This document shows, piece by piece, positions 8,966-43,447 of a stretch of DNA of 64,000 nt; positions within the stretch are counted from its first letter, which is position 1; each line of letters opens with the position of its first letter. A model generated the notes under the pieces. It searched no databases. It was not told the DNA's origin and worked only from the letters and a program-made list of their open reading frames with translations. Source of the stretch: a virus (taxonomy: Duplodnaviria; Heunggongvirae; Uroviricota; Caudoviricetes); the IMG/VR virus record IMGVR_UViG_3300042564_004805, positions 1 through 64,000 of that record. One strand, written 5' to 3'. Both the position numbers and the translations under genes were made by a program.

Positions 8966-8988
8966 GGCATCCTGAAATGGCCAGCCGG

Positions 8989-26177: not shown

Positions 26178-26291
26178 AGCAGAGTTTGTACAATTATGTG
26201 TGTACGTGTCAAAATTGACACTAAATACAATTGCGGTCCGCGAGCCTCTAACCTCTCCGACCGCTCTAAACGCTATGAAGGAGCATTCAGC

Positions 26292-27227: not shown

Positions 27228-27250
27228 CTTCCGCCTATTGAGGCAATTAT

Positions 27251-28513
27251 CTAGCCTGCATCTCCTGTTTCAGCCACCCCTTCTTCTTTTGTGAACCGCA
27301 CCCAGGTACCAAACGGCGGAACGATATTCTTGTTCCAAGGATTGTTGACAAGCCAAACAACGGGACAGAAATTGGGCTCGCCAAACTCACTTGATTCAAG
27401 ATCTGTGAAGATGATCAATACCTTGGGCTCAACATTCATTTCCTTGAGTGATCTAATAACCACAGAAATGTCGGTTCCGCCGCCACCCATGGGCTCATAC
27501 TCCAGCAGCTCTTCAATGTTTTCTGGAGTAAACTCCTGGCGATTATAGAGCCGGGTATCAAAGGTGCTGACTGCAAGCCGGAAATTATCATATTGTGAAG
27601 TTATCCCCAAAACTTCACTTAGAAAGTCGCGTGCCATGTCAGCAGAGATGCTGCCGCTTTGGTCAATGCTGACCTCCACATCCACAGTTTCCTCACGCTC
27701 CAGGCTGGCAAACACCACATCACCACCATGATGGCGACGATTGGGGCGCCGGTAGGTGTAGTCGCTTGTGAGTTGGCTTTGAATAGTCTCGCGAATGAAG
27801 TCACGCCAGTTGATCTTGGGCTCCACAAGATGGTCCACAAGACGTGCAATGCTGGCTGGAAGATTTCCAGCAGAGGCATTGGCAGCTTGCAGAACCTTGT
27901 CTTTGAGCTCAGCTCGAAGCTGTTTGAGGCTTTCCTCATCAATCTCAACAGGAATGCCTTGGTTGCTTTTTTGCCCATCTGAGTTTTGGGCATCTTTGCC
28001 CATCTCAATGTGCACGTCGAGAGTAAGCTGTTTCTTCACCTTGCGCTTTACAAGGTCGTCATAGACTTTTTCTGACGTCCAGCCCAGATACTTGCTGTCG
28101 TAGAGGCCAACACGCTGGGTGGATTTGCCATCAGCGTCTTTAACTTCTACCTTTTTTTCTGGCATTTTGCCAATCTTGTCTTGCACAAGTAGGCCGTTTA
28201 TAACGTAATCATTGGCCATGTTAAACCACTGCGGATCACGATGGCTGCGTCGACCAAAGTGATCAAAGATACAATGGTAGCACTCGTGCGCAAAAACAAA
28301 CAGCACTTCATCAACTGATAGGTCGTTGATGAAATTTCGGTTGTAGTAGATATATCGACCATCAACCGCAGCAGTCGGGCACCATCCAGCATCAGTTGCG
28401 TCCTTAACCGGAAGGTTCATGACCAATGTTCCGAAAAAAGGATGGGTGAACATCAACTTCAATCGAGCCTTGCGGATCTTGGTCATAGCTGAATCGTCAT
28501 TGGCGATAGACAT
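27251..28513 (-). CDS. VWA-domain protein with N-terminal HExxH putative metallopeptidase domain (DUF2201-like, MoxR partner type)
   Basis: HECYHCIFDH HExxH motif and a C-terminal VWA-like region; AAGGAGG Shine-Dalgarno site. Confidence 0.65.
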   Translation of the reverse strand: MSIANDDSAMTKIRKARLKLMFTHPFFGTLVMNLPVKDATDAGWCPTAAVDGRYIYYNRNFINDLSVDEVLFVFAHECYHCIFDHFGRRSHRDPQWFNMANDYVINGLLVQDKIGKMPEKKVEVKDADGKSTQRVGLYDSKYLGWTSEKVYDDLVKRKVKKQLTLDVHIEMGKDAQNSDGQKSNQGIPVEIDEESLKQLRAELKDKVLQAANASAGNLPASIARLVDHLVEPKINWRDFIRETIQSQLTSDYTYRRPNRRHHGGDVVFASLEREETVDVEVSIDQSGSISADMARDFLSEVLGITSQYDNFRLAVSTFDTRLYNRQEFTPENIEELLEYEPMGGGGTDISVVIRSLKEMNVEPKVLIIFTDLESSEFGEPNFCPVVWLVNNPWNKNIVPPFGTWVRFTKEEGVAETGDAG

Positions 28514-28588
28514 AATAAGTGGCCTCCTTGCGTAGTGGCATATTCAGCATAATATACAACCAAAAACTCTTAAGTCACGTGGAAATTT

Positions 28589-28622
28589 GGGAAAAAATTT
28601 TTCCCGACGGTGTCAGGACACC
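28589..28622. promoter_or_regulatory. paired palindromes in the divergent control region (GGGAAAAAATTTTTCCC and GGTGTC-AG-GACACC)
   Basis: two adjacent inverted repeats in the 273-bp gap between the divergently oriented VWA gene and the fibre gene. Confidence 0.4.
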
Positions 28623-28786
28623 TTAAAAAGGTAGAGGCAAAACGGTAATCAACTACCTAGCTCCAAGACCATTCCGTAAATAGGGGTAGCCGAGTTTGAT
28701 CCAGCAGGGGAGAGCGAAGATGGTTCAGCCATTTTTGTTGTAGTGCAGGAAAGAACTCTGAAAACGAAAACAAGGTGTAATCCACT

Positions 28787-31700
28787 ATGGCGATAAAAAT
28801 TTGTGGGAATATAGTGATTCCCAATAGTACAGGATGCAATACGACTGCACTTAACACAGCCGTGGGTATCAATGCACTTTGTAATCTCAACACAGGTGTT
28901 AGCAATACAGCTTTTGGTGGTGGGGCTCTTCTGGCTGTCTCAACCGGCTCTCTGAACATGGGTCTAGGTGTCTATGCTGGTGGTAGCATCACAACAGGCT
29001 GTGCCAACACAGTGATTGGGCAGTTGGCTGGTACCCCAGGCCTCGTTGACACTGTGCTGATTGGTGCTGGCACAACTGAGAGATTGCGTGTTGACGCCAA
29101 TTGTCTAGTTGTCAACAATGGCACTGGTGATGTGTGTGCCCGCTGCTTCTTTGGTTGTGGTGCTGGTTTAACTGGCATTTCTGGCGGGGCAGTTTCAGCA
29201 GCAACTCCAATTCAATTGGGAACTGTGTATGGCCTCACAAGCAACAACTCCAACACTGCAATAGGATACTGTGCAGGCAGCACAACCAGCACAGGCACAG
29301 AAAATATTGCTATTGGTTGTTTGGCGCTCAGCAATAACACAACTGGCGTTCAAAACACTGCCGTGGGGGTAGACGCGCTCAAATCCAATACGATTGGGCA
29401 AGAAAATACTGCCCTTGGCAGCGACGCGTTGTTCTCAAACACAACTGGCAATTGGAACGTGGCTGTAGGGCGGTGTGCACTATATGCCAACACTGTGGGC
29501 CAAATGAATGTGGCTGTTGGGCGGAACAGTCTGTGCACTAATACCACTGGCAGCTTCAATGCCGCATTTGGTGAAGCCACCCTGTTGTGCAACACAACAG
29601 GCAGCTACAATACTGCACTGGGCACAAGCGCCTTGCGTTGCAATACCCAAGGCAACTTGAACATTGCTGTTGGCAACAACAGTTTGTTTAACAACACCAG
29701 TGGCAGTCGGAACATTGCTGTTGGTGACTGTGCCCTGTTCAATAGTGTGAGTGGATCAGACAACGTAGCTGTTGGCAGCAGTGCCCTGGGAGGACTCACT
29801 AACGGCTTATGGAACATCGCTGTGGGCTCAAATGCTTTGCGCTGCAACACCACAGGCTGCAACAATATTGCTTTGGGATTCTCCAGCATGTGCAGCAGCT
29901 CAGTTGGTTCAGACAATGCTGCATTTGGATCGTTTGCCCTCTCTGCCAACACAACAGGAACCTTGAATACAGCTATCGGCCACTACGCATCATGTGCCAA
30001 CACCATTGGAGCATGCAATATTGCTCTTGGCGCATGCTCACTAGCTGCAAACACATCGGGTGGTAGCAACGTTGCTGTTGGGCCATTTGCTTTGGCCAGC
30101 AATACAGTAGGAGTTCGTAACATTGCAATGGGCAGATGTGCTTTGGCCGCTAATACTGGCAACTGCAACATTGGCATTGGTGTTCTTTCGCTACTCAACA
30201 CAACTACTGGTGCATGTAATATAGCAATTGGCAACAGCAGTGGGGGTAATATCACAACCGGAACCAGCAATACTATTATAGGTAATTTATCAGGTTGTGC
30301 TGGCCTCACCGCCACTGTATTGATTGGCGCAGGGGCTACTGAACGTATCCGTGTTGACGCCAATTGTCTAGTTGTAAACAATGGCACTGGTGATGTGTGT
30401 GCTCGCTGCTTCTTTGGCTGTGGTGCTGGTTTAACTGGCATTAGCGGCGGAAGTGTGTCTGCTGCTACTCCCACAAGTTTGGGGACAGTTTATGCCAACA
30501 CTCCTGTTGGGTCGAATGTGCAGTTGGGATATAATGCTGGCAATACTACTGCTACTGGAGCAGATAACATTGCAGTTGGTTGTCTAGCTTTGGTCAACAA
30601 CGGTTTTGGATGTCAAAACTTGGCATTTGGCAGCAGCAGCATGTGTGCAAGCACAACTGGGCGCAGTAATATCGCAATAGGCATTGACACCATGATGTTA
30701 GGAGGCGGGCCGTGTGGTAACATTGGTGTTGGTAACGGGGCTCTTTGTTGCGTAAGTGGCACACAGGGAACAGCCAATGTGGCTCTGGGACATTTTGCCT
30801 TGAGAAGGACTACAACTGGTGGCTACAACACTGCGGTTGGTGAGCAAGTACTTCAAAACAATACAATAGGATGCCAAAACATAGGTTTTGGTGCCTTTGC
30901 ATTGGGGGCTAATACCTCAGGCTTTAACAACATTGGAATTGGGGCTTATGCTGTAGACGCCAATACCACAGGAGTGGAAAATGTTGGTATAGGCACTTGC
31001 AGCCTTACAGCTAACACAATAGGTTTGTGCAATACTGCGGTTGGCGGGAATAGTCTTAAGTCAAATACTATAGGCTGTTTCAATACAGCACTTGGATTCA
31101 TGGCCCTGAACTGCAACACAACTGGTAACAGCAACATTGGTATAGGCGTTTGTGCAGGTTTTTCAATAACAACTGGGTGCAGTAATACAGTAATTGGTAA
31201 CTTGGCTGGCACAGCTGATTGTGTGAACACAGTGTTGATAGGCGCTGGAACAAACGAAAGACTAAGAGTTGACGCAAACTGTTTGGTTGTCAACAACGGC
31301 ACAGGGGACGTGTGTGCAAGATGTTATTTTGGTTGCGGCGCTGCTTTAACAGGTGTTGCGGCTACTACTGCCAATTTGGACATCTATGCCAGCTATAAGG
31401 TTGGTAACGGCCTTACAGTCAGTACAGGAACAAACAACTTTGCTTTTGGCCAAGGTGCGCTTTGTTGTAACCGAAATGGTTGTAGCAATACAGCTATCGG
31501 TGCGAGTGCTCTACGATGCAATACAACTGGTAGCAATAACATTGCAGTTGGTTGTTTGGCACTCCAATTTAATACAAGTGGTAACAATAACATAGGCATG
31601 GGCTTTGATGCCCTTGGCACTAATTTTAATGGCAGTGACAACATTGCATTGGGGGCATGTGCTCTAAGGAACAATATTACCAATTCAAACATAGCAATTG

Positions 31701-34700
31701 GCGGCGCTGCCCTACAGCAGAATACCAGTGGCACATTTAACATAGCACTGGGTATTGGTGCGCTGACTGCAAACACCGCTGGAATATGTAACATAGCAAT
31801 TGGCCAACTCGCTGGAAGTCTGATCACAACTGGGTTCAACAACACAATAATTGGCAATTTGTCACCAGCAGCCGGCAGTGTATGTTGTGTGCTGATTGCT
31901 GCTGGCAGTTGTCAGCGACTGGCTATAGATGTGAATGGATTTGCTATAAACGGCAGCGGTGTGGGCTGTTGCGGATATGCGTGTTTGGACTGCACTAGCA
32001 GTTATAAAATAGGCACATTCAATACCAGCAGCACTGGGACATTTAACATGGCATTTGGCCAAGGTGCGCTTTGTTGTAACCGAAATGGTTGTAGCAATAC
32101 AGCTATCGGTGCGTCTGCTCTACGATGCAATACTAGCGGGTGTCACAATATTGCAGTTGGTTGTTTAGCACTCCAACTTAACCTAACTGGTAACAATAAC
32201 ATAGGCATGGGCTTTGATGCCCTTGGCACCCTTGGCACTACCTCTGGTGGCAGTGACAACATTGCATTGGGGGCATGTGCTCTAAGGAACAATCAGACCA
32301 ATTCAAACATAGCAATTGGCGGCGCTGCCCTACAGCAGAATTGCAGTGGCACATTTAACATAGCACTGGGTATTGGTGCGCTAGGTGCAAACACCGTTGG
32401 AACATGTAACATAGCAATTGGCCAACTCGCTGGAAGTCTGATCACAACTGGGTGCAACAACACAATAATTGGCAATTTGTCTGGCACTACGGGTTTGAAT
32501 AACACTGTATTGATTGGTGCTGGCAGTTGTGAACGACTGAAAGTAGACTCAAGTGGGCTTTATGTTAATGGGGCATCTATTGGTAGCTGTGGATATGCGT
32601 GTTTGGACGTCTATAGCAGTTATAAAATAGGCACATTTATGTCCAGCAGCACTGGGTTATATAACATGGCATTTGGCCTAGCTGCGCTTTGTCTTAATCT
32701 AAATGGTAGTAATAATACAGCTATCGGTGCGTCTGCTCTACGATGCAATACAACTGGTAGCAATAACATTGCAGTTGGTTGTCTGGCACTCCAATTTAAT
32801 ACAAGTGGTAACAATAACATAGGCATGGGCTTTGATGCCCTTGGCACCCTTGGCACTACCTCTGGTGGCAGTGACAACATTGCATTGGGGGCATGTGCTC
32901 TAAGGAACAATCAGACCAATTCAAACATAGCAATTGGCGGCGCTGCCCTACAGCAGAATTGCAGTGGCACATTTAACATAGCACTGGGTATTGGTGCGCT
33001 AGGTGCAAACACCGTTGGAACATGTAACATAGCAATTGGCCAACTCGCTGGAAGTCTGATCACAACTGGGTGCAACAACACAATAATTGGCAATTTGTCT
33101 GGCACTACGGGTTTGAATAACACTGTATTGATTGGTGCTGGCAGTTGTGAACGACTGAAAGTAGACTCAAGTGGGCTTTATGTTAATGGGGCATCTATTG
33201 GTAGCTGTGGATATGCGTCTTTGGACTGCACTAGCAGTTATAAAATAGGCACATTTATGTCCAGCAGCACTGGGTTATATAACATGGCATTTGGCCTAGG
33301 TGCGCTTTGTTGCAACCGTAATGGTAGTAGCAATACAGCTATCGGTGCGTCTGCTCTACGATGCAATACTGCTGGTAGCAATAACATTGCAGTTGGTTGT
33401 TTGGCACTCCAATTAAACCTAACTGGTAACAATAACATAGGCATGGGCTTTGATGCCCTTGGCATTAACCCTGGTGGCTGTGACAACATTGCATTGGGGG
33501 CATGTGCTCTAAGGAACAATCTTACCAATTCAAACATAGCAATTGGCGGCGCTGCCCTACAGCAGAATACCAATGGCACATTTAACATAGCACTGGGTAT
33601 TGGTGCGCTGACTGCCAACACCACTGGAACATGTAACATAGCAATTGGCCAAAACGCTGGCTCCCTAATAACCACTGGGTTCAACAACACGGTAATTGGC
33701 AATTTGTCTGGCACCGGGGGTTTGGTTTGCACTGTATTGATTGGTGCTGGCGCATGTGAACGACTGCGAGTAGACGGAACTGGGCTTTATGTTAATGGAG
33801 CATCTATTGGTAGCTGTGGATATGCATGTTTGGACTGCACTTCCAGTTATAAAATAGGCACATTTATGTCCAGCAGTGCTGGGACATTTAACATGGCATT
33901 TGGCCAAGGGGCGCTTTGTTGTAATTTAACTGGTTGTAGCAATACAGCTATCGGTGCGTCTGCTCTACGATGCAACCAGAACGGGTCTCATAATATTGCA
34001 ATTGGTTGTTTGGCACTTCAATTCAACACACTAGGTTGCAATAACATAGGCATGGGAGTTAATGCCCTAGGCACTAACTTGAATGGAAGTGACAACATAG
34101 CATTGGGGGCATTGGCCCTTTGCTCAAACACCACCGGTTGCAACATAGCAATTGGTTACTTTGCCCTATCGCAGAATACTACTGGGACTGGTAACATAGC
34201 ACTGGGTATTGGTGCGCTGACTGCCAACACCACTGGAACATGTAACATAGCAATTGGCCAAAACGCTGGAAGTCTGATCACAACTGGGTTCAACAACACG
34301 GTAATTGGCAATGTAACACCAGCAGCAGGCAGTGTATCTTGTGTGCTGATTGCTGCTGGCAGTTGTCTGCGACTGGCTATAGATGGGAATGGATTTGCTA
34401 TAAACGGCAACCCTGTGGGCTGTTGTGGATATGCGTGTTTGGACTGCACTAGCAGTTATAAAATAGGCACATCCAATACCAGCAGCACTGGGCTATTTAA
34501 CATGGCATTTGGCCTAGCTGCGCTTTGTTGCAACCGTAATGGTTGTAGCAATACAGCTATCGGTGCGTCTGCTCTACGATGCAATACTAGCGGGTGTCAC
34601 AACATTGCAGTTGGTTGTTTAGCACTCCAATTTAATACAAGTGGTAACAATAACATAGGCATGGGCTTTGATGCCCTTGGAATTAACCCTGGTGGCTGTG

Positions 34701-35923
34701 ACAACATTGCATTGGGGGCATGTGCTCTAAGGAACAATACCACCAATTCAAACATAGCAATTGGCGGCGCTGCCCTACAGCAGAATACTACTGGGACTGG
34801 TAACATAGCACTGGGTATTGGTGCGCTGACTGCCAACACCACTGGAACATGTAACATAGCAATTGGCCAAAACGCTGGAAGTCTGATCACAACTGGGTTC
34901 AACAACACGGTAATTGGCAATGTAACACCAGCAGCAGGCAGTGTATCTTGTGTGCTGATTGCTGCTGGCAGTTGTCTGCGACTGGCTATAGATGGGAATG
35001 GATTTGCTATAAACGGCAACCCTGTGGGCTGTTGTGGATATGCGTGTTTGGACTGCACTAGCAGTTATAAAATAGGCACATCCAATACCAGCAGCACTGG
35101 GCTATTTAACATGGCATTTGGCCTAGCTGCGCTTTGTTGCAACCAAAATGGTAGTAATAATACAGCTATCGGTGCTTGTGCTCTACGATGCAATACAACT
35201 GGTAGCAATAACATTGCAGTTGGTTGTTGGGCACTCCAATTTAATACAAGTGGTATCAATAATATAGGCCTGGGCTTTGATGCCCTTGGCACTAACTTTT
35301 GTGGCAGTGACAACATTGCATTGGGGGCATGTGCTCTAAGGAACAATACCACCAATTCAAACATAGCAATTGGCGGCGCTGCCCTACAGCAGAATACCAA
35401 TGGCACAAACAACACTGCAATAGGACGATCAGCAGGTACGAGCAACACAAATGGCAGTAACAACGTGTTTTTGGGATGCGGTGCAAGTGGAGCAACAGCA
35501 ACCAGCAACAACACAATAACTTTTGGTGATTCCAGCATTACTACACTGCGAGCTCAGGTAACTACTATTACTGCTTTGTCTGATGCTAGAGACAAAACTG
35601 ACATCGAAGATATTCCTTTGGGATTGCAGCTGATACGTGATCTACGTCCAGTAAAATTCACATGGAATACTAGAGATGGCAGCCGAGTAGGGGTCAAGAG
35701 CGCTGGATTTATTGCTCAAGAAGTACTGGAAGTCAGCAATCGATATAATCTACAAGACTGGCTGCATTTGGTGCTTGAGGACAACCCAGAGAAGCTTGAA
35801 GCCACAGTAGCTAACGTGTTCCCTGTGTTGATTCGAGCTGTGCAAGAGTTGGCTGAAAGCAACGATCAGCTCAATCAGCGTGTGACAGCTCTTGAACTTG
35901 CACTCACTGCCAAAGGTGTGTAG
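28787..35923 (+). CDS. giant tail fibre/adhesin (2378 aa): Hep_Hag-like N/G-rich beta-roll repeats plus C-terminal peptidase S74 intramolecular chaperone domain
   Basis: pervasive NTAIG..AL..NTTG..N.A.G repeats; C-terminus SDARDKTDIEDIPLGLQLIRDLRPVKFTWN...GFIAQEV matches the S74 Ser-Lys dyad autoproteolytic chaperone. Confidence 0.9.
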   Translation: MAIKICGNIVIPNSTGCNTTALNTAVGINALCNLNTGVSNTAFGGGALLAVSTGSLNMGLGVYAGGSITTGCANTVIGQLAGTPGLVDTVLIGAGTTERLRVDANCLVVNNGTGDVCARCFFGCGAGLTGISGGAVSAATPIQLGTVYGLTSNNSNTAIGYCAGSTTSTGTENIAIGCLALSNNTTGVQNTAVGVDALKSNTIGQENTALGSDALFSNTTGNWNVAVGRCALYANTVGQMNVAVGRNSLCTNTTGSFNAAFGEATLLCNTTGSYNTALGTSALRCNTQGNLNIAVGNNSLFNNTSGSRNIAVGDCALFNSVSGSDNVAVGSSALGGLTNGLWNIAVGSNALRCNTTGCNNIALGFSSMCSSSVGSDNAAFGSFALSANTTGTLNTAIGHYASCANTIGACNIALGACSLAANTSGGSNVAVGPFALASNTVGVRNIAMGRCALAANTGNCNIGIGVLSLLNTTTGACNIAIGNSSGGNITTGTSNTIIGNLSGCAGLTATVLIGAGATERIRVDANCLVVNNGTGDVCARCFFGCGAGLTGISGGSVSAATPTSLGTVYANTPVGSNVQLGYNAGNTTATGADNIAVGCLALVNNGFGCQNLAFGSSSMCASTTGRSNIAIGIDTMMLGGGPCGNIGVGNGALCCVSGTQGTANVALGHFALRRTTTGGYNTAVGEQVLQNNTIGCQNIGFGAFALGANTSGFNNIGIGAYAVDANTTGVENVGIGTCSLTANTIGLCNTAVGGNSLKSNTIGCFNTALGFMALNCNTTGNSNIGIGVCAGFSITTGCSNTVIGNLAGTADCVNTVLIGAGTNERLRVDANCLVVNNGTGDVCARCYFGCGAALTGVAATTANLDIYASYKVGNGLTVSTGTNNFAFGQGALCCNRNGCSNTAIGASALRCNTTGSNNIAVGCLALQFNTSGNNNIGMGFDALGTNFNGSDNIALGACALRNNITNSNIAIGGAALQQNTSGTFNIALGIGALTANTAGICNIAIGQLAGSLITTGFNNTIIGNLSPAAGSVCCVLIAAGSCQRLAIDVNGFAINGSGVGCCGYACLDCTSSYKIGTFNTSSTGTFNMAFGQGALCCNRNGCSNTAIGASALRCNTSGCHNIAVGCLALQLNLTGNNNIGMGFDALGTLGTTSGGSDNIALGACALRNNQTNSNIAIGGAALQQNCSGTFNIALGIGALGANTVGTCNIAIGQLAGSLITTGCNNTIIGNLSGTTGLNNTVLIGAGSCERLKVDSSGLYVNGASIGSCGYACLDVYSSYKIGTFMSSSTGLYNMAFGLAALCLNLNGSNNTAIGASALRCNTTGSNNIAVGCLALQFNTSGNNNIGMGFDALGTLGTTSGGSDNIALGACALRNNQTNSNIAIGGAALQQNCSGTFNIALGIGALGANTVGTCNIAIGQLAGSLITTGCNNTIIGNLSGTTGLNNTVLIGAGSCERLKVDSSGLYVNGASIGSCGYASLDCTSSYKIGTFMSSSTGLYNMAFGLGALCCNRNGSSNTAIGASALRCNTAGSNNIAVGCLALQLNLTGNNNIGMGFDALGINPGGCDNIALGACALRNNLTNSNIAIGGAALQQNTNGTFNIALGIGALTANTTGTCNIAIGQNAGSLITTGFNNTVIGNLSGTGGLVCTVLIGAGACERLRVDGTGLYVNGASIGSCGYACLDCTSSYKIGTFMSSSAGTFNMAFGQGALCCNLTGCSNTAIGASALRCNQNGSHNIAIGCLALQFNTLGCNNIGMGVNALGTNLNGSDNIALGALALCSNTTGCNIAIGYFALSQNTTGTGNIALGIGALTANTTGTCNIAIGQNAGSLITTGFNNTVIGNVTPAAGSVSCVLIAAGSCLRLAIDGNGFAINGNPVGCCGYACLDCTSSYKIGTSNTSSTGLFNMAFGLAALCCNRNGCSNTAIGASALRCNTSGCHNIAVGCLALQFNTSGNNNIGMGFDALGINPGGCDNIALGACALRNNTTNSNIAIGGAALQQNTTGTGNIALGIGALTANTTGTCNIAIGQNAGSLITTGFNNTVIGNVTPAAGSVSCVLIAAGSCLRLAIDGNGFAINGNPVGCCGYACLDCTSSYKIGTSNTSSTGLFNMAFGLAALCCNQNGSNNTAIGACALRCNTTGSNNIAVGCWALQFNTSGINNIGLGFDALGTNFCGSDNIALGACALRNNTTNSNIAIGGAALQQNTNGTNNTAIGRSAGTSNTNGSNNVFLGCGASGATATSNNTITFGDSSITTLRAQVTTITALSDARDKTDIEDIPLGLQLIRDLRPVKFTWNTRDGSRVGVKSAGFIAQEVLEVSNRYNLQDWLHLVLEDNPEKLEATVANVFPVLIRAVQELAESNDQLNQRVTALELALTAKGV
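31385..35530 (+). repeat. about seven in-frame tandem ~604-618-bp (~206-aa) near-identical modules inside the fibre gene
   Basis: module landmark ...CGYACLDCTSSYKIGT recurs at ~31992, 32610, 33228, 33846, 34450 and 35058; identical 70-aa antisense ORFs at 32293 and 32911 confirm the 618-bp period. Confidence 0.85.
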
Positions 35924-35934
35924 ACTTTAGGCTT

Positions 35935-36843
35935 ATGATCCCACGCGGTGGCACTGAACTCATGATGGCCAATCTCTCTCAACAACTGGGAGGTTGGCCA
36001 ACATCGTTGAATCTCATAGTAAGCAATTGCAGCTTACATCAAATAGATCCCAACAAAAAGAACGTTGTTTGGCAGCATCTCGACACCGACCAAGAGGCCA
36101 GTCAAGGTGCGGCTAATCCACAGTTTCAACAGGCTGTTGCTTGCTGGATATTTGTAAGTGAATGGCAACGTATAAAATGGATAAACTATTTTGGCATAGA
36201 TCCAAACAAAACAGTTGTGATCCGCAATGCCATACACTCTTTCAATTGGCAACTCAAACCCGCCTCTCAGCAAATTGAAATGATCTACACCAGCACTCCT
36301 TGGAGAGGACTTGATGTGTTGCTGGATGCTGTAGACCAACTGCAATATCAAAACTGGCGTCTCACAGTTTACAGCAGCACCATTATCTATGGCAAAGGTT
36401 TCAGTGACAGCACCATGAGAGGCTATCAGTCTTTGTTTGATCGCTGTCGCCAGCACACTCAAATCCAGTATGTTGGTTACGGGCTCAATCAAGCTGTGAG
36501 AAAGAGATTGCAAGGCAGTCACTTATGGGTATATCCCAGCACTTTCCCAGAAACCAGCTGCATCTCAGCAATAGAGGCTGCTAGTGCTGGGTGCCAGGTG
36601 GTCACCACTCGACTTGGTGCTCTTGAAGAAACCCTTGGCGAAAGTGCTTGTTTTGTAGACTATACTACCAACAAACGGGTATTGTCAGCAGCCTTTGCTA
36701 AATCTCTTGATAACCAATTGAGCAAATATGATTCAAATAACCCTCAATGGCAAAATCAAGCATTATTATTTGACAAACTCTACAGTTGGAACACTAGAAT
36801 ACACGAATGGCAAATTTTAATCAATCAACTCGTCGCAGAGTAA
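35935..36843 (+). CDS. glycosyltransferase (GT-B, group 1/GT4-like C-domain)
   Basis: RGLDVLLDAV...EAASAGCQVVTTRLGALEE resembles the Glycos_transf_1 C-terminus; starts 11 nt after the fibre stop. Confidence 0.55.
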   Translation: MIPRGGTELMMANLSQQLGGWPTSLNLIVSNCSLHQIDPNKKNVVWQHLDTDQEASQGAANPQFQQAVACWIFVSEWQRIKWINYFGIDPNKTVVIRNAIHSFNWQLKPASQQIEMIYTSTPWRGLDVLLDAVDQLQYQNWRLTVYSSTIIYGKGFSDSTMRGYQSLFDRCRQHTQIQYVGYGLNQAVRKRLQGSHLWVYPSTFPETSCISAIEAASAGCQVVTTRLGALEETLGESACFVDYTTNKRVLSAAFAKSLDNQLSKYDSNNPQWQNQALLFDKLYSWNTRIHEWQILINQLVAE

Positions 36844-37505
36844 TGATAGGCACCCCTAGCTATGATGGCAAGGTAGAGGTCAGCTACACTAGCAGTTTAT
36901 TTTATACTACTAAAGCTGCTGAAAAAAGAAACATTGAACTTTTACCCTTATGGGTCAGCTTCGATGCATTGATTCAAAGAGCTAGAAATGACACCTTGCA
37001 ATTAGCATATGAGATCGGTGTTGATGATCTCGTATGGATTGATCAAGATATTGAATGGACCCCGCAACAGTTTTTTAAACTACTGGATCATCCTGTAGAT
37101 GTTGTGGGTGGCACATATCCCAAAAAAGGGGATCGTCCAGAATATGTTGTAAGACAAATGACTAAACGCCCTATTGACCCGCAAACTGGTTTGATGGAAG
37201 TTGATGGCTTGGGCACAGGATTTGCACGCATGAGTCGACAAGCTATAAACCATTTGTGGAACACCAGTCAAGCCTATATTGATCCCAAAGACATGAAGCA
37301 ACGCCGAATGATCTGTGATGTGATAGTTACCAACACCGGTCTTATGAGTGAGGACATACGTATGTTTGAAAAACTTCAGGAAGGCGGATTTCCCATATAT
37401 CTTGACACCACAATCACTTGCAAGCACGGCGGCTATAAGCAATATCAGGGTGACTTCCTACAATGGTACACAGGGCTGGGACAGACAAAAGGCCGGCAAT
37501 TGTGA
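36807..37505 (+). CDS. putative glycosyltransferase (GT-A-like)
   Basis: weak GT2-like features (RRVMIGTPSYDG...VWIDQDIEW); embedded in the glycosyltransferase cluster. Confidence 0.4.
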   Translation: MANFNQSTRRRVMIGTPSYDGKVEVSYTSSLFYTTKAAEKRNIELLPLWVSFDALIQRARNDTLQLAYEIGVDDLVWIDQDIEWTPQQFFKLLDHPVDVVGGTYPKKGDRPEYVVRQMTKRPIDPQTGLMEVDGLGTGFARMSRQAINHLWNTSQAYIDPKDMKQRRMICDVIVTNTGLMSEDIRMFEKLQEGGFPIYLDTTITCKHGGYKQYQGDFLQWYTGLGQTKGRQL

Positions 37506-37573
37506 CTACCTACAAGTGTTGGTCAAGTTCTCAACAGCTTTTTAGTCTATTATAGGCAGATGAATCTTAAATT

Positions 37574-37603
37574 TTGGCAAAAATAGTCAATTTGCCTTAT
37601 AAT
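37574..37603 (+). promoter_or_regulatory. sigma70-like promoter (TTGGCA-18-TATAAT) internal to the plus-strand cluster
   Basis: ttggca at 37574-37579 and tataat at 37598-37603; AGGAA Shine-Dalgarno site before the ATG at 37628. Confidence 0.5.
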
Positions 37604-37627
37604 ATCTTGAAGCTTCGAGGAACTAGA

Positions 37628-38560
37628 ATGACAAAAAAGATATTTTGGATAGACGGTGGTGCTGGTAGAGTAATCACCGCTATTCCTGCATTAATCAAAT
37701 ACGGTCGATTGCATCCCAACAGCGAATGGGCTGTGTTGGTTGGGGCATGGGATTTCTTATACTGGGGTATTCCCGAGCTGCAAGATCGCACCTACAATCT
37801 TGATACAAAAGGTGTTTTTGACAACGTAGTCAAGAATGCTGATCAAATAGTAACCCCGGAGCCTTATCGTATCCCAGCATATTTTAGGCAAGAGATAAGT
37901 TTGGCTGAAGCTTTTGACAGGGAAATCAACCAAACTACAGATCACAGTGATTTATTGCCACCACGCTTGGCATTCAATCAACAAGAAACTCTAGTAGCCA
38001 AGAATACCATAGCTGATCTCAAAAGTGTGAGCAAAAAGAACAAAACTATTGTATTTCAACCCTTTGGCCGTGGTGCCAAACTGGATCGTGCCACAGTGAT
38101 TGACGAAGAAAGCAGAAGCTTAAGCTCAAACGACTATTTGAGCCTGAGCCGGCGTCTTAATCAAAAATACAACATGATCTTTTTTGGCGAGCCTGACTTT
38201 CAATTGAAAGACGACAACTGGAGTGCCAAATACACTGCTGATTTAAGAGTTTGGTCAGCTCTAGTTGCCAACTCTGACTATTTTGTAGGATGTGACAGTG
38301 TAGGCCAGCATATTGCTAGAGCCTCTGGAGTACCAGGCACAGTAATTATTGGGAGTACGTTTCCCAAGAACACCAGCTATCCAGATTACTTTCAAATAAT
38401 TGAAAAGCCTGCTGCTAGGAAATATAGTCCTATTCGTATTGCTGGTCTGGACGTAAATCTCAGCAATAGGCTGAATGAAGGCACAATGAAATTCTCAACC
38501 AAAGAACTAGACGACATCTATCAAAAGATTGTTGCAGATATTGAAAGGAAAACACGCTGA
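37628..38560 (+). CDS. glycosyltransferase family 9-like (heptosyltransferase-like)
   Basis: KKIFWIDGGAGRVITAIPALIKY N-terminus typical of GT9; start set at MTKKIF. Confidence 0.5.
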   Translation: MTKKIFWIDGGAGRVITAIPALIKYGRLHPNSEWAVLVGAWDFLYWGIPELQDRTYNLDTKGVFDNVVKNADQIVTPEPYRIPAYFRQEISLAEAFDREINQTTDHSDLLPPRLAFNQQETLVAKNTIADLKSVSKKNKTIVFQPFGRGAKLDRATVIDEESRSLSSNDYLSLSRRLNQKYNMIFFGEPDFQLKDDNWSAKYTADLRVWSALVANSDYFVGCDSVGQHIARASGVPGTVIIGSTFPKNTSYPDYFQIIEKPAARKYSPIRIAGLDVNLSNRLNEGTMKFSTKELDDIYQKIVADIERKTR

Positions 38561-40257
38561 TGAAAATAATGGCCATCAATCCCGGTCACAACAGCAGTGT
38601 GGCGCTTGTTGAAGACGGTAAGTTGCTGTTTTATAGCGAGGAAGAACGATGGAGTCGCCTAAAGTATGACGGTAATCCATTTAGAGCCATGCTATGGGTA
38701 CTAACTAATCATTTGGTAGACCACTTGATCATTGGTGGGACCACCACTAATTGGGTTACTCTTCCTTGGACTAACGAGAATGCCTATGCTGCATTAGCTC
38801 GCAAATTCAGTCCTAATGTGCAAGTTACCCTAATGGGCCATCTACATCACTTGGGTCATGCAGCTAATGCCTTCTATGGCAGTGGTTTTGAAACAGCATG
38901 CGCCTTGGTCGTAGATGGGGCCGGAAGCTATGTGCAAGAAAGCATGGGAGAAGGACTACCACTTACTGGGGGTTTTGAAACTGAAAGCATCTATCATTGC
39001 AGCTATCCACATGAGTTCAACGCAGTTTACAAAAGATACAGTGACGGTGCGGAAACCAGCCTCTACTACGACAACGGTATCCAAGAATTTGATAATAATG
39101 TTACTATTGTTAAGGCATACGAGAGTGTAAGTGATTATTTAGGATTTGGGGCTATTGAAGCTGGGAAGACCATGGGACTAGCTCCTTATGGCCAAGAAGA
39201 CAGCAACATTCCTGCCTTTTTCATCAACAATAAAGGCAACAAGAACTTGTTGATTCCTCGATATCCCACCGGCGCACACATTGACGAGAATAGATTTCCT
39301 TACTTGCGTAGATACACACAACCAAGTGACTGGCATAATAACTTTGAATTAGTGCGAGATCAAGACAAGAATCTAGCCTACCATGTGCAGAAAGAAACTG
39401 AAGAGCAGATGGTGAAGTTGATTGAGCGTGCTATTGACATTACTGGAGAAAATCGCATTGTAATCAGTGGTGGTTATGCACTCAACTGTGTTGCCAACTA
39501 CAAATATCTAGAACGTTTCCCTAATATTGAGTTTTACATTGATCCCATTGCACATGATGGTGGAACAGCCATTGGTTTAGCTCGGCATGCTTATTATGTT
39601 CTGAGCCAAGATACTACACCTCAACCACTCTCTCATCTCTACTTGAGTGTGTTGCCAGACTATAATCAGATTGAAACCACTATTGCTTCTGTTGAAGGTA
39701 TCAGCATGAGAGACACATCACCTGCTGAAGTGGCACTACTGCTGGCAGAAGGCAATATTGTGGCTTTGTTTCAAGGCGCTAGTGAAGGTGGGCCTCGTGC
39801 ACTAGGCAACAGAAGCATTCTTTTTGATCCTCGAGTAACCAACGGCAAGGATATTGTTAACCAAGTTAAAAATCGTGAATGGTTCCGCCCTTTTGCTGCG
39901 AGTGTGATGGCAGAACATGCAAATGACTGGTTTGACATGCGCAATCTCAATGAAAGCCCTTACATGATGTATGCTGTAAATGTGAAGGAAAGCCAAAGAG
40001 AGTTGATTCCTGCAGTTACACATGTGGATGGCACCTGCAGAGTACAAACTGTCACCAGCGAGCAAAACTTGCATTTGTATCAGCTGCTAGATGCTTTTCG
40101 GCAACAAACCGAAACACCGTTGCTGTTTAACACTAGTTTCAATCTAGCTGGGCAGCCATTGGTGGAAACACTGGTAGACGCCTTGATAACAATCTTCAAC
40201 TGTGATATCCACTACCTGTATCTTCCCGATCTGGGAATGTTAGTATGCAAACAGTAA
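38560..40257 (+). CDS. carbamoyltransferase (NodU/CmcH family)
   Basis: N-terminus MKIMAINPGHNSSVALVEDGKLLFYSEEERWSRLKYD matches Carbam_trans_N; length 565 aa fits. Confidence 0.8.
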   Translation: MKIMAINPGHNSSVALVEDGKLLFYSEEERWSRLKYDGNPFRAMLWVLTNHLVDHLIIGGTTTNWVTLPWTNENAYAALARKFSPNVQVTLMGHLHHLGHAANAFYGSGFETACALVVDGAGSYVQESMGEGLPLTGGFETESIYHCSYPHEFNAVYKRYSDGAETSLYYDNGIQEFDNNVTIVKAYESVSDYLGFGAIEAGKTMGLAPYGQEDSNIPAFFINNKGNKNLLIPRYPTGAHIDENRFPYLRRYTQPSDWHNNFELVRDQDKNLAYHVQKETEEQMVKLIERAIDITGENRIVISGGYALNCVANYKYLERFPNIEFYIDPIAHDGGTAIGLARHAYYVLSQDTTPQPLSHLYLSVLPDYNQIETTIASVEGISMRDTSPAEVALLLAEGNIVALFQGASEGGPRALGNRSILFDPRVTNGKDIVNQVKNREWFRPFAASVMAEHANDWFDMRNLNESPYMMYAVNVKESQRELIPAVTHVDGTCRVQTVTSEQNLHLYQLLDAFRQQTETPLLFNTSFNLAGQPLVETLVDALITIFNCDIHYLYLPDLGMLVCKQ

Positions 40258-40687
40258 ATTTAAAAGAGTTTCACTTGAGCAGTGCGTTACCTGGAGCAGG
40301 TAGCCCACTGCTCAACAGCATAATTAAACAAAATCCAAAGTTCTCTGCCACTATAAGTGATCCTTTGCATAGTTTTGTGCACATCCTTATAAGAGACATC
40401 AACAGCCCTGTTGGTGTGGTTGCACAAATAACTTGAGATCGACGCCGGCAAATACTCACAATGAGTTTGATATTGGATAGCATACAGTCCAAAAAAAGTG
40501 GTCGCTACTACCAATTCTCCAAGAGACTTGACGACTGTGTTGTAGGATCTGTAATTACCTTATGATTTTTTGGTAATGAAACAGCTTAGAATTACAAAAT
40601 ATCCTCTAGATTCACGCATATAGCAGATCTTTTAACAAAAGTATGCAACACTGGAAGTTTCATACACCTACAAGAAAGCAATTATAA

Positions 40688-41563
40688 ATGGCAGGCACCT
40701 TATATGGGATGATAACTGTTGCAAGCAGCAACCAATATACACATGTAGCCCTTACAAGTTTTTTCAAACACACAAAATTATCTGCAGAAGATAGGTTTGT
40801 GTTGATTGACAACGACGGAGAATGGACTAAAAACTGGCATTTGGACTGTTTTGATCCCAACCTAGTATATGTGAATTCAAACCCTCAGAATTTTAGCACA
40901 AATATCAATCAATTGCTGAGATGGGCTGATGAACAATATGCAGATTTAGTTTTCCTCAGCAATGATGTTGTTTTTACCCCCAAGTGGGCTACCCGTCTAG
41001 TGATAAATGACAGGACAGTGAGCATTCCCAGTTGTAATCAAACTCATTTTTATGGCTTTGACCCTACCTTAAATCTACAGCAATTTGGTGGTAGATTTCT
41101 ACATTTGAATGTAGCTGCTCACACACATGCTGCACGGTCACCAGCACCTTTTGAGCGCCTTCTCATGCCCACCTATGTATGTAGAATTCCACGTCTAATT
41201 TACCAAGAAGTTGGAGGCTTTGATGAAGCGTTCAACATGGGAGGTGAAGATGTGGACTATAGATTGCGCCTACTTCAAAAAGGCTTTGAAATCAAATATT
41301 GCAGCAGTTATTTGCTACACTTCAACGGTTGCAGTAGTTGGAACGGGGCGGAAACCTTAGCTGAAACTCAACTGCGTAACCGGTTGTATATGCAAACTTT
41401 TATTGAGAAATGGGGAGAAGATTTACACGACTTGTGTATGAGTTCAGGACAACCAACATCTATTATTGAAAAATATCAATTACACGGGTTACTTAACGAA
41501 TGCCGTTTCAACGACATAATAAAATCCTTGCTAACTGCACTAGAGTTCAATAAAGTTATATAA
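40688..41563 (+). CDS. glycosyltransferase family 2-like
   Basis: MITVASSNQY...FVLIDNDGEW...FLSNDVVFTP suggests a GT-A fold. Confidence 0.45.
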   Translation: MAGTLYGMITVASSNQYTHVALTSFFKHTKLSAEDRFVLIDNDGEWTKNWHLDCFDPNLVYVNSNPQNFSTNINQLLRWADEQYADLVFLSNDVVFTPKWATRLVINDRTVSIPSCNQTHFYGFDPTLNLQQFGGRFLHLNVAAHTHAARSPAPFERLLMPTYVCRIPRLIYQEVGGFDEAFNMGGEDVDYRLRLLQKGFEIKYCSSYLLHFNGCSSWNGAETLAETQLRNRLYMQTFIEKWGEDLHDLCMSSGQPTSIIEKYQLHGLLNECRFNDIIKSLLTALEFNKVI

Positions 41564-41566
41564 ATA
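41559..41566 (+). promoter_or_regulatory. T4-late-type promoter TATAAATA
   Basis: TATAAATA overlaps the upstream stop; 10 nt later AAGGAG, then the ATG at 41591. Confidence 0.5.
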
Positions 41567-41590
41567 TGTTATATCCAAGGAGAAAAAAAC

Positions 41591-41899
41591 ATGAGTGAGA
41601 CAGTGGGATCAATTATTGATCCACAAACAATAACTACTGAAATTGTTTTAAGTGAAAGAGTAGTAACAAATGAGTTTGTTATTGCTGAAATTTATGAAAG
41701 CATTGTGAACCGTTCTGTGCGGGCTGAGATTGAGCTTGGGCCATTTGTTACTGACACAAGACCAGATGGCAGCACGCAAACAAGAGGAAGCAGTCGTCGA
41801 GGGATTACAGTGTGGGACAATGATGCGTATGATGCTATAAGGGACACTTGGCGCAACGAAGATCTCATTACACGTATCAAGACCATTTTGAACGGATAA
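41591..41899 (+). CDS. hypothetical protein (late-type expression signals)
   Basis: 102-aa ORF with TATAAATA plus AAGGAG upstream and a strong terminator downstream. Confidence 0.55.
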   Translation: MSETVGSIIDPQTITTEIVLSERVVTNEFVIAEIYESIVNRSVRAEIELGPFVTDTRPDGSTQTRGSSRRGITVWDNDAYDAIRDTWRNEDLITRIKTILNG

Positions 41900-41920
41900 T
41901 TTAAGTTATGCAAAAACATG

Positions 41921-41950
41921 AAAACGGAGGGCATATTGTCCTCCGTTTTC
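41921..41950. terminator. bidirectional rho-independent terminator
   Basis: AAAACGGAGGgcatattgtCCTCCGTTTT: perfect 10-bp stem between convergent genes. Confidence 0.75.
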
Positions 41951-42159
41951 ACCTATGGTGCTATAGACGTGCACGCGGGGAAGACTGATTCACAAACAAC
42001 CTTACACGTAGAAAGTTGATTTGGCTTGAGGTATCATAAATCCTTTTGAGGATCGCAACCTTGCTAGTGCATATGAAAGGAACGCAGTAGCTAAAAAGAA
42101 CAAAGGTGCAGTGCTCCACAACGCTGCACCCTTGTTCTTGGTAACTCTAGTAGCTGAGT

Positions 42160-43374
42160 TTAGTTTGCGTTCATGCTCGGAATAAGTGACGAATATTGTT
42201 TCACAAAAACTTTCCATGAACTCAGTTGATTTGGCTTGATGGGGTGGTCACGTGTAGTTGCCATAAACGACCGAGCACCCATTACAACCATCTCCGGTTC
42301 AAAGTTGTCCATCATGAACTGGAAGAAGCGATCGGCGCTCTTATACATGTCATCGTGCGAATTCTTCACACCATTCTGCTTATTACTCTCAGCTTTCTTG
42401 ACATCATCTGTGAGCTCATACACCAGTGCAGTGGTCAGTGCATAGCAAATGTCCATCTGCTTCACGTTCAGCTTGGTGACTGTGCCATCAAGGATGTCGC
42501 GTGCACGGGGTAGGTTAGCTGCTTGTCGACGATAGCTGAGGAACTTCAGGGCAGGACCCTCACCTACAGTGCCCTTGATGAGATCGCCAAGCACATCTGC
42601 TGGCAGATCCGTCTCGCGGTAGCTGCCATCCAGTTGGGGCTCATACAGCAGTTCGCTGACAAAGCTCCAGCTACGTGGGGTAGCAAACGCATAGCTTTCG
42701 CGACGGGGATCAAAGTCAAAGAGATCATTGGGCTGATAGCTGAGGTAACCCACCACATGCTCGTGGATGCGATTCATCATAGCCCATTCCTGCCAGTCAT
42801 CAAAGTCCACAGCCAGCGTTGCATGGATGAAGCGATTTGCCAGCGGAGTTGGCATGTTGTAGGCCACACCCTTGTCACGCACTCGGTTACCAGCAGCAAC
42901 CATCACTGCATCATCAGGCAGCTGGTAACTGCCAATGCGCCGGTTCAGGATCAGCTGATATGTGGCAGCCTGCACAGAGGGTGGTGCTGCGCTCATCTCA
43001 TCAAAAAACACCATTGCGCGGCTGTTGGGATCAGTGGGCAGATCGGTAGGGTTGCTCCACTTGAAAATCTTCTCTGTCAGTGGAACGTTGTGCTCATTCT
43101 TTACCACGTTGCCTTCTGCATCGCGGATAGTCACTTCTGCGAGGTGCGGAATGCCTCGAATGTCAGTGGCCTCAAGTAGGGGAAGTCGAATGTCAATCAG
43201 TGGGCGCTTCTGAGCACGAGCAACCTCTGCAACAATGTCACTCTTGCCAATGCCAGGAGGGCCGGCGATGAAGAGAGGTCGCTTCCTACGCGTCACGTGA
43301 TCGATCATCACCTTCAGCTTGCTGGGACTGACAGTAGTGATTGTCTGGATTTTCTCTTGAGCTGCCTTAGCCAT
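42160..43374 (-). CDS. MoxR-like AAA+ ATPase
   Basis: Walker A FIAGPPGIGKSDI; AAA_5-type core. Confidence 0.8.
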   Translation of the reverse strand: MAKAAQEKIQTITTVSPSKLKVMIDHVTRRKRPLFIAGPPGIGKSDIVAEVARAQKRPLIDIRLPLLEATDIRGIPHLAEVTIRDAEGNVVKNEHNVPLTEKIFKWSNPTDLPTDPNSRAMVFFDEMSAAPPSVQAATYQLILNRRIGSYQLPDDAVMVAAGNRVRDKGVAYNMPTPLANRFIHATLAVDFDDWQEWAMMNRIHEHVVGYLSYQPNDLFDFDPRRESYAFATPRSWSFVSELLYEPQLDGSYRETDLPADVLGDLIKGTVGEGPALKFLSYRRQAANLPRARDILDGTVTKLNVKQMDICYALTTALVYELTDDVKKAESNKQNGVKNSHDDMYKSADRFFQFMMDNFEPEMVVMGARSFMATTRDHPIKPNQLSSWKVFVKQYSSLIPSMNAN

Positions 43375-43447
43375 GTCTGCGTGTGTCCTTGCTGTTGTGT
43401 ATTACCAGCTGAATATATGGCAGGTATTTTTTACGTCAACACAAAAA

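Follow-up and report, generated by a model that had tools for sequence, protein, structure and literature searches.

How did two genes that are neighbours in nearly all related phages come to lie 13.6 kb apart, with a block of oppositely oriented genes between them? This question is raised by a 64,000-nucleotide stretch of a Caudoviricetes virus (positions 1 to 64,000 of IMG/VR record IMGVR_UViG_3300042564_004805), hereafter called the window. On its minus strand, it carries intact genes for a MoxR-like AAA+ ATPase of 404 residues (42160-43374) and for a VWA protein of 420 residues, which combines a MIDAS motif with an N-terminal HExxH metallopeptidase domain (27251-28513). The genes between them, which include a large tail fibre gene and a set of sugar-modifying enzymes, are all located on the plus strand. 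The initial annotation took this block for a mobile cassette that had split a MoxR-VWA operon. Our analysis indicates that the block is very probably a derived insertion between ancestrally adjacent genes, and the reading that we favour overall, with reasonable confidence, is that of a derived insertion which has been exchanged or lost by recombination. The contigs and loci that were compared with the window are referred to by L-numbers (L004 to L214).

A megablast search of window positions 27000-44000 against GenBank phages returned no match; thus, there is no close cultured relative, and searches at the protein level and in metagenomes were used. For a survey of the spacing between the two genes, loci were fetched with MoxR or VWA as the sole query, which covered 80 IMG/VR contigs, metagenome contigs and four GenBank phages. 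Both genes were present in 76 loci, always on the same strand and with MoxR upstream of VWA. The gap between them was at most 200 bp in 63 of these loci, 201-1500 bp in 8, 1.5-4 kb in 5 and in none larger than 4 kb. VWA was missing despite 5 kb or more of sequence downstream of MoxR in just four loci, all of which bear the cassette. The two proteins each match more than 800 GenBank phages, and the genes are adjacent in Phosso and Atu_ph07, separated by one gene in a Vibrio jumbo phage, and 2.9 kb apart in PA5oct, where the gap includes a homing endonuclease gene. Unlike in Atu_ph07, Phosso and nearly all relatives, a 13.6-kb opposite-strand block parts the genes in the window. The open reading frame (ORF) map agrees with the initial annotation on the identity, coordinates and strand of both genes, and on the opposite orientation of the entire gap.

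The comparison with close relatives narrows the event down. L166 and L172, which are about 77% identical to the window in nucleotide sequence, are collinear with it from 50849 to 18831, gene for gene, with two differences. They are devoid of the block at 28514-42092, in place of which they contain a 0.9-kb HNH homing endonuclease gene, and they lack the NUMOD3 endonuclease gene of window positions 26196-27227. The gap is likewise free of the cassette in L007, L009, L167/8, L010, L084, L170, L211 and L212-214; MoxR and VWA are directly adjacent in L010, L084, L170 and L212-214, and L211 has only an HNH gene between them. The cassette is present in the gap in three backbone sublineages, namely the window clade (L004-6, L206-210), L008, and the ENA contig L194/L205. 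In L008, MoxR is 92-95% identical in nucleotide sequence to that of the cassette-free L007 and L009, and the L194/L205 MoxR (79% amino-acid identity) and VWA (66%) group with the otherwise adjacent L010/L084 type. Presence of the cassette in the gap is therefore polymorphic among relatives with 75-95% identical backbones. Because all deeper outgroups have the two genes side by side, the insertion is derived, and it is patchy within the close group. Measured against the refuting condition set in the initial annotation, the outcome is mixed: the spaced arrangement with homologous intervening genes does recur in L008 and L194/L205, but module-less relatives are interleaved with these lineages and the deeper outgroups are adjacent. 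The adjacency in outgroups and about 70 relatives, together with the block-free L166/L172, upholds the proposal that the cassette splits ancestral MoxR-VWA neighbours.

Adjacency, however, does not make an operon, and this part of the initial annotation is not supported, because the relatives have a predicted terminator and promoter between the two genes. Promoters and terminators were called here from matches to consensus sequences. In 11 of the 13 MoxR-VWA spacers inspected, a hairpin is accompanied by a consensus sigma70 promoter (TTGACA-17-TATAAT/TATATT), and hairpin and promoter are also found in L007-9, L010, L084, L167/8 and L205. In close relatives, the terminator comes first and is followed by TTGACA-17-TATATT. 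The spacers of distant relatives contain TTGACA-GGACCTTCGGGTCC-TGT-TATAAT, in which the 17-nt promoter spacer is itself a GC hairpin. This nested arrangement, a terminator-like stem-loop inside the promoter of the downstream gene, is present in L020, L028, L030, L049, L056, L070 and others. In the window, a sigma70-like promoter is predicted upstream of MoxR (TTGACG-16-TATATT, 43412-43439, minus strand; 10/12 matches in a consensus scan). MoxR and VWA look like separate, probably early, transcription units and not like an operon, so a separation of 13.6 kb can be tolerated.

The block itself spans about 13.4 kb (about 28613-41957) and forms a self-contained cassette with its own upstream region and terminator. 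Its gene order is kept in more than 30 other viral or metagenomic contigs at 40-94% amino-acid identity, and comprises the fibre gene, a GT4 glycosyltransferase, a glycosyltransferase-like gene, in some cases a GT2 glycosyltransferase, a GT9 glycosyltransferase, a carbamoyltransferase, further genes and a final 102-residue ORF. The further genes vary and include sulfotransferases, methyltransferases, additional glycosyltransferases or an epimerase. These other copies (L090-L116, L173, L182, L198, L200-L202) are found in at least three or four different neighbourhoods: some adjoin genes for tail fibres and a tail sheath stabiliser, and some adjoin other fibre genes, after which Cpn10 and clamp loader genes follow. 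Neither MoxR, VWA nor any other gene of the window was detected within 10 kb of these copies. The GT9-carbamoyltransferase pair on its own is kept in about 50 further contigs.

The boundaries of the cassette were determined by comparing its copies within the gap. At the left end, the fibre upstream region (28613-28786, plus strand) is common to L205, whose positions 8095-8300 align to window 28803-28613, and is therefore part of the cassette. A search with the fibre N-terminus for more left junctions returned relatives of at most 46% identity, none of which adjoins VWA. Between the cassette and VWA, a window-specific segment of 99 nt (28514-28612, minus strand) stands in place of the VWA promoter that is conserved in relatives. 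It contains a sigma70-like promoter (GTGACT-16-TATATT, 28578-28551) and a 17-nt palindrome, GGGAAAAAATTTTTCCC (28589-28605), which occurs once in the window. The palindrome had been described as a divergent control region; it does exist, but a role as recurrent regulatory motif or control region was rejected, because it is unique, does not fold significantly (z about -1) and is not part of the sequence that other cassette copies have in common. The second proposed edge feature, a bidirectional terminator, is present at the right end of the cassette (hairpin at 41919-41951, with fold z values of -5.3 and -6.0 on the two strands), and homology to the L008 cassette begins at 41957.

Beyond this point, the window retains traces of its flanking genes. 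Positions 41980-42029 (minus strand) are a stub of MoxR, namely a decayed copy of its 3' coding end at 42191-42239, with 39/50 identical positions and a 16-nt exact core; the alignment score of 53 compares with a null maximum of 28 in 500 shuffles. The "17-bp direct repeats" that had been noted at this edge correspond to the 16-nt core, but they belong to this 50-nt decayed MoxR copy. The stub matches MoxR of clades A/B (39-43 identities) and not that of L194, L010 or L084, and its origin from an L194-type donor was therefore rejected. It is followed by an endonuclease-free remnant of the ancestral MoxR-VWA spacer (42035-42093, minus strand), recognized by local alignment to L009 6495-6568. 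This remnant, read from 42093 to 42035, is homologous to the L009 stretch between the endonuclease gene and the VWA promoter and stops just short of the -35 box. The MoxR terminator hairpin (42089-42146, minus strand) has a fold z of -4.96, and its core is kept in L007, L008 and L009.

The junctions of the other two lineages contain comparable traces. In L008, MoxR is followed by the terminator, a NUMOD3 endonuclease gene, the spacer, an orphan VWA promoter, a VWA stub and the cassette terminator. The orphan promoter is intact, and spacer and promoter are 97.5% identical to L007. The stub corresponds to the first approximately 30 codons of VWA and is decayed, with a lost start codon, a frameshift and a stop. 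In L205, the order is cassette, VWA 5' stub, a gene for a 505-residue HNH endonuclease, VWA promoter and VWA, and the stub has about one mismatch in 45 nt to the VWA gene of the same contig. At the other end of the L194/L205 contig, one terminator serves both the 102-residue ORF and MoxR, which are 74 nt apart. The junction measures 74 nt with one terminator in L194, 260 nt in the window and 1.3 kb in L008. A stub of a flanking gene is found in all three cassette-bearing lineages, and in two of the three it adjoins a homing endonuclease gene. The L008 VWA stub was considered as the footprint of the original insertion, but this was dropped after the L205 stub, beside an endonuclease gene, and the window MoxR stub had been found. 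We instead read the stubs as repair scars between cassette-plus and cassette-minus alleles.

The involvement of endonucleases is suggested by the history of the gap. Homing endonuclease genes have repeatedly moved into it, and at least four kinds are represented, with HNH_3 genes in L007, L009, L167/8 and L211, the NUMOD3 gene in L008, the 505-residue HNH enzyme in L205 and an annotated homing endonuclease in PA5oct. Directly downstream of VWA, the window contains a NUMOD3 homing endonuclease gene (26196-27227, plus strand; Pfam NUMOD3 1.2e-25, PHROG 655), and L211 has a GIY-YIG (SegE-like) gene at the equivalent spot. Judged by these gene contents, the MoxR-VWA gap is a homing-endonuclease insertion hot spot. 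T4-like phages also possess endonuclease-rich plastic regions, in which seg- and mob-type genes promote the exchange of flanking DNA. The gap resembles these regions by its free-standing HNH, NUMOD3 and GIY-YIG genes between or beside conserved genes, which are variable among close relatives, and by the duplicated flanking-gene stubs beside endonuclease genes. It differs in that the insert is a 13-kb structural and glycan module, known from sequence, and not just an endonuclease gene. Breaks made by homing endonucleases may have driven cassette exchange, although we consider this slightly short of an even chance.

These observations can be combined into the following scenario. The ancestral order was very probably MoxR, terminator, sigma70-type promoter and VWA, with the two genes as immediate neighbours in separate units. 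In the window lineage, the cassette occupies the short spacer on the opposite strand. Gain, exchange or loss of the cassette would have taken place between co-infecting relatives by recombination, with MoxR and VWA serving as homology arms. The spacer has been invaded repeatedly by endonuclease genes, and repair of double-strand breaks between cassette-plus and cassette-minus alleles would have left the scars: a VWA 5' stub each in L008 and L205, and in the window a MoxR 3' stub with the spacer remnant. The VWA 5' segments, being duplicated, might also allow the cassette to be lost precisely. The window VWA would have acquired a new upstream region, and both genes presumably keep working at a distance of 13.6 kb because each has its own promoter.

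Several points weigh against this scenario. The nucleotide identity of the cassette between the window and L008 or L194 is 80-85%, and that of the backbone 67-84%; with cassette and backbone diverged to a similar degree, one old insertion followed by several precise losses fits these sequences equally well. The cassette is located in exactly this gap in three sublineages, so its position could be selected. Translocation within the same genome is not separable from outright gain or loss in this comparison, and the cassette-minus relatives compared are partial genomes. Finally, the window's own gap holds no endonuclease gene, and the link to endonucleases is circumstantial.

The first of these points leads to the alternative that survives best, namely that the cassette was inserted just once, long ago, in the common ancestor of the close group (the window, L007-9 and the L010/L084/L194 types), and that the cassette-free genomes are secondary precise deletions. 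The parallel divergence of cassette and backbone agrees with it, the duplicated VWA 5' segments of L008 and L205 would be direct repeats able to excise the block precisely, and the junctions appear progressively eroded in the order L194, window and L008. However, this explanation requires at least 4-5 independent precise losses, each restoring the conserved terminator-promoter spacer, and L008 and L007, which are so nearly identical in spacer and promoter, nevertheless differ by the entire cassette. In addition, the L194 flanks (VWA 66%, MoxR 79% amino-acid identity) are markedly more divergent than its cassette enzymes (87-94%), a discordance which leans towards exchange but is only moderate at the nucleotide level, and thus suggestive and not decisive. 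We regard a single ancient insertion as unlikely, and continue to favour an insertion that has been exchanged or lost by recombination.

A second alternative, raised in part by the initial annotation, is that the position is functional, i.e. that MoxR and VWA are a chaperone and processing pair for this particular fibre and that the cassette is kept between them for co-regulation. MoxR contains the Walker A (GPPGIGKS) and Walker B (VFFDE) motifs of an AAA+ P-loop core and belongs to PHROG 1297 (ATPase, E 2.7e-90). Its Pfam matches, AAA_5 with 25.9 bits (cut-off 22) and AAA with 21.8 bits (cut-off 21.2), are barely over their cut-offs, and AAA_3 stays under its cut-off; homologues carry PF07728, PF00004 and occasionally PF07726. 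The top Foldseek matches of its AlphaFold2 model (pLDDT 65) include MoxR (2r44), NorQ, also in NorQ-NorD VWA complexes, and RavA, but the TM scores of this low-confidence model are just 0.22-0.34 and MCM proteins score equally well. The VWA protein matches DUF2201_N, a putative metallopeptidase (E 2.5e-42), and the VWA-like DUF2201 (E 2e-16), with an HECYH motif and an intact MIDAS motif, DQSGS. Sequence searches of the PDB with GT9, MoxR and VWA returned marginal matches only, among them a weak match of VWA to the minigluzincin MJ1213.

Such a pair is already known. A MoxR AAA+ ATPase and a vWA partner fused to an N-terminal metallopeptidase have been described in group 2.2 jumbo phages by Iyer et al. 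(2021, PMC7824862), who took the tail of the archaeal virus ATV as an analogy and proposed a role in virion assembly and proteolytic processing. The example proteins of that study, ASV44729.1 and ASV44728.2, are encoded by the adjacent Atu_ph07 genes that are matched by the window proteins; MoxR is 36% identical to the ASV44729.1 locus in tblastn (E 4e-62). As in Atu_ph07, the window VWA combines DUF2201_N with the DUF2201 VWA domain, and genes for DNA polymerase I, a glutaredoxin and RNA ligase are found nearby. By these similarities, the window pair belongs to the published phage MoxR-vWA-peptidase pair. It also resembles RavA-ViaA, NorQ-NorD and CbbQ-CbbO, in which an AAA+ ATPase is paired with a MIDAS-bearing VWA adaptor; unlike in these systems, the phage VWA is fused to an HExxH peptidase, and separate transcription is predicted even when the genes are adjacent. 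By analogy, an AAA+ hexamer is likely to engage the VWA/MIDAS adaptor, whose fused peptidase would then process a client.

The huge, cysteine-rich fibre is a plausible client of such a chaperone, and both the published proposal of a role in virion assembly and proteolytic processing and the recurrence of the cassette in exactly this gap in three backbone sublineages are in line with a functional position. In contrast, about 70 relatives keep the two genes side by side and have no fibre gene nearby, and more than 30 contigs have the cassette without MoxR or VWA within 10 kb. Close cassette-free relatives keep both genes under the same constraint: the dN/dS values between the window and the cassette-free L166 are 0.075 for MoxR and 0.079 for VWA, which, as sequence-based estimates, indicate that both genes are under strong purifying selection and still functional. 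Moreover, the two genes have sigma70-type promoter sequences, are surrounded by replication genes and are oriented against the cassette, and the fibre has its own S74 intramolecular chaperone. With pair and cassette occurring independently almost everywhere, a dedicated chaperone pair for the fibre is not favoured, and we consider the functional position improbable.

The term "mobile cassette" in the initial annotation is appropriate insofar as more than 30 contigs carry the block as a coherent unit and its distribution is patchy in three sublineages, but not if it implies a transposon, an integrative island or an integron cassette that inserted by its own machinery. The discrete block with its sharp homology breakpoints, and the repeats at one edge, would be compatible with such an element. 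However, no terminal direct or inverted repeats and no target-site duplication were found between the cassette ends; their longest common word is 8 nt, which is the chance level (94.5% of shuffles reach 8 nt). The edge repeat is the MoxR stub and not a target-site duplication, the junctions differ in all three cassette-bearing lineages, and no transposase, integrase or recombinase domain was detected in the seven cassette ORFs by Pfam, PHROG or NCBIfam. A self-mobile element is therefore very improbable. Since terminal repeats and a recombinase or transposase are absent, any movement would be by recombination, and spread or loss of the cassette by this route rather than by self-mobility is rather likely.

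An assembly chimera joining a structural to an early region, as the opposite strand and different gene class of the block might suggest, can practically be dismissed, because the junctions recur in the independent assemblies L004-6, L206 (241 kb), L207 (326 kb) and L208-210 and, in diverged form, in L008 and L194/L205, and the VWA protein is found on 15 contigs. Copies of the VWA protein with 100% identity occur on contigs of up to 328,603 bp, and the 241-kb contig L206 is 99.85% identical to the window across 21 kb. The window therefore comes from a jumbo phage with a genome of about 330 kb, and its arrangement is no assembly artefact. Outside the cassette, the window is a near-unbroken minus-strand array of replication and nucleotide-metabolism genes, including DNA polymerase, exonuclease, QueE, RNA ligases and a nucleotidyltransferase. 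Within this early or middle region, the cassette forms a strand-reversed structural island.

The largest gene of the island encodes a tail fibre or spike protein of 2378 residues (28787-35923, plus strand), which matches PHROG 23837 and 6002 (virion structural) and 4636 (tail spike). It terminates in a Peptidase_S74 intramolecular chaperone domain (PF13884, residues 2265-2316, approximately 35579-35734, Pfam E 3e-11), which is encoded by a separate gene in L194. Self-similarity revealed beta-roll-like repeats of about 15 residues of the form NTAhGxxALxxNTTGxx, and self-BLAST uncovered about 6.5 tandem copies of a 609-618-nt (205-residue) unit with 82-93% nucleotide identity at 31420-35407, for which Tandem Repeats Finder returned nothing, as the period exceeds 500. 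The number of repeats differs in near-identical genomes, with a fibre of 1968 residues in L207 compared to 2378 in the window. The protein contains 134 cysteines (5.6%). It thus shares the C-terminal S74 chaperone and the tail spike and virion structural families with endosialidase-type fibres and spikes, but differs from them by its extreme length, its near-identical 205-residue units and its cysteine content. The C-terminal tip of the fibre (window 35466-35858) is replaced in L006 (17729-20340) and L005 (11304-13915), in contigs that are otherwise 98-99% identical, by 2.6 kb with five small ORFs, including tail-fibre- and tail-assembly-like proteins. This replacement looks like a receptor-binding tip swap.

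The fibre gene is followed after 12 nt by the first of the enzyme genes, which are co-oriented with it and include overlapping ORFs. A GT4-type glycosyltransferase (35935-36843, plus strand; Pfam Glycos_transf_1 2.2e-10 and 6.4e-10, PHROG 2170) precedes a 232-residue protein that is remotely glycosyltransferase-like (36807-37505, plus strand; PHROG 1574 of unknown function, and PHROG 34859, glycosyltransferase, E 7e-8). The next gene encodes a GT9 (heptosyltransferase-like) glycosyltransferase of 310 residues (37628-38560, plus strand; PHROG 8954). Its start was corrected from the TTG at 37574 of the ORF list to M19, where the homologues begin; most of these carry PF01075 and some are named ADP-heptose:LPS (lipopolysaccharide) heptosyltransferase. 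It is followed by a NodU/NolO-type carbamoyltransferase (38560-40257, plus strand; Pfam Carbam_trans_C 6.5e-60 and Carbam_trans_N 4.7e-24, PHROG 1601), whose NCBIfam NodU match (6.5e-40) is below the cut-off of that family. An apparent non-coding gap of 430 bp proved to be the remnant of a sulfotransferase pseudogene (40245-40457, plus strand; tblastn 69%, E 7e-25), of which the first 72 codons with an in-frame stop are left and the remainder is deleted. The gene is intact in L008 and L194, and the L008 orthologue matches Pfam Sulfotransfer_3. A GT2-like glycosyltransferase (40688-41563, plus strand) has weak matches only, i.e. sub-threshold Pfam GT2/Glyco_transf_7C and NCBIfam MftF/EpsD fragments, and is kept within cassette copies. 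The last gene, a 102-residue ORF (41591-41899, plus strand), has no match in Pfam, PHROG or NCBIfam, and copies with 49-100% identity are found at the cassette end in many loci. The count of five sugar-modifying genes in the initial annotation is reasonable for the GT4, GT-like, GT9, carbamoyltransferase and GT2-like genes, to which the sulfotransferase pseudogene has to be added. Some cassette variants contain two methyltransferases (Methyltransf_24; Methyltransf_13/23/14) between the GT2-like gene and the 102-residue ORF, at 14380-16240 in L194 and 9121-10984 in L200, and others one or two sulfotransferases. Variation among the cassettes thus resides in the decoration enzymes.

In more than 30 loci, the glycosyltransferase genes stay linked to the fibre gene, whatever the lineage or context. 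By analogy with the virion glycosylation of mycobacteriophages, it is possible, though we hold it only tentatively, that the enzymes assemble a decorated glycan and attach it to the fibre encoded beside them. The chief competing role would be that they modify the host surface. The fibre contains 86 NxS/T sequons, compared to 55 expected from its composition, but this excess, which is at most suggestive, is built into its structural repeat motif. The Carbam_trans_N/C domains, and the sulfo- and methyltransferases of the variants, are reminiscent of the NodU/NolO and NodH-type enzymes that decorate Nod-factor oligosaccharides. In contrast to NodU itself, however, the carbamoyltransferase scores 137 bits against an equivalog cut-off of 1000, and the similarity is at the family level only.

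Virus-encoded glycosylation of capsids is known from chloroviruses. Virion glycosylation cassettes are also present in mycobacteriophages (Freeman et al. 2023, PMC10527164, as reported in PMC12619734). Both systems share with the cassette a close linkage of glycosyltransferase genes to a gene for a virion structural protein, in the same orientation. In the cassette, the target would differ, being the fibre and not the capsid or tail tube. The enzyme set described here, with GT4, GT9, GT2-like, carbamoyl-, sulfo- and methyltransferases, likewise sets the cassette apart from the mycobacteriophage and chlorovirus systems.

Further genes with possible links to sugar metabolism are located elsewhere in the window. 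A NAD-dependent sugar epimerase/dehydratase is encoded at 7973-9115 (minus strand; Pfam Epimerase 6.6e-57), in the sole kilobase with 70.8% GC; the remaining window has 39-57% GC. Its composition suggests that the gene was acquired recently from a high-GC bacterium; its product could provide nucleotide sugars for the cassette enzymes. A second small plus-strand island (17220-17948) encodes a GT25 (LPS-type) glycosyltransferase (Pfam 5.3e-7) and is also found in L206-L209. The two RNA ligase genes of the window are located at 1841-3058 and 9784-10995 (both minus strand), and one of them belongs to the T4 RnlA-like family that is annotated as "RNA ligase and tail fiber attachment catalyst". In Phosso and Atu_ph07, too, the MoxR-VWA pair has an RNA ligase gene downstream of it.

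Insertion of a module at a recombination- and endonuclease-rich hot spot is familiar from phage mosaicism, and the novelty of the split pair is modest. Nonetheless, the window provides a natural example of a jumbo phage that has retained MoxR and the VWA-peptidase without adjacency or co-transcription, and a base-level map of a 13-kb structural module in an endonuclease-rich spacer together with the scars left there. For annotation, it follows that a search for the MoxR-VWA pair should extend past directly neighbouring genes. The more interesting lead is the recurrent glyco-fibre cassette. A speculative view, which we consider rather unlikely in this full form, is that aquatic jumbo phages swap a portable unit of a giant Cys/Asn-rich fibre and the complete enzymes for a carbamoylated, sulfated or methylated glycan as a block, with conserved gene pairs such as MoxR-VWA, broken by homing endonucleases, as landing pads. 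If true, host range or virion surface chemistry would change in one recombination step. The recurrence of the fibre and glycan-enzyme block in more than 30 jumbo-phage contigs hints at a possible virus-encoded glycosylation of the fibre, which would bear on host recognition and on the evasion of immunity and defence.

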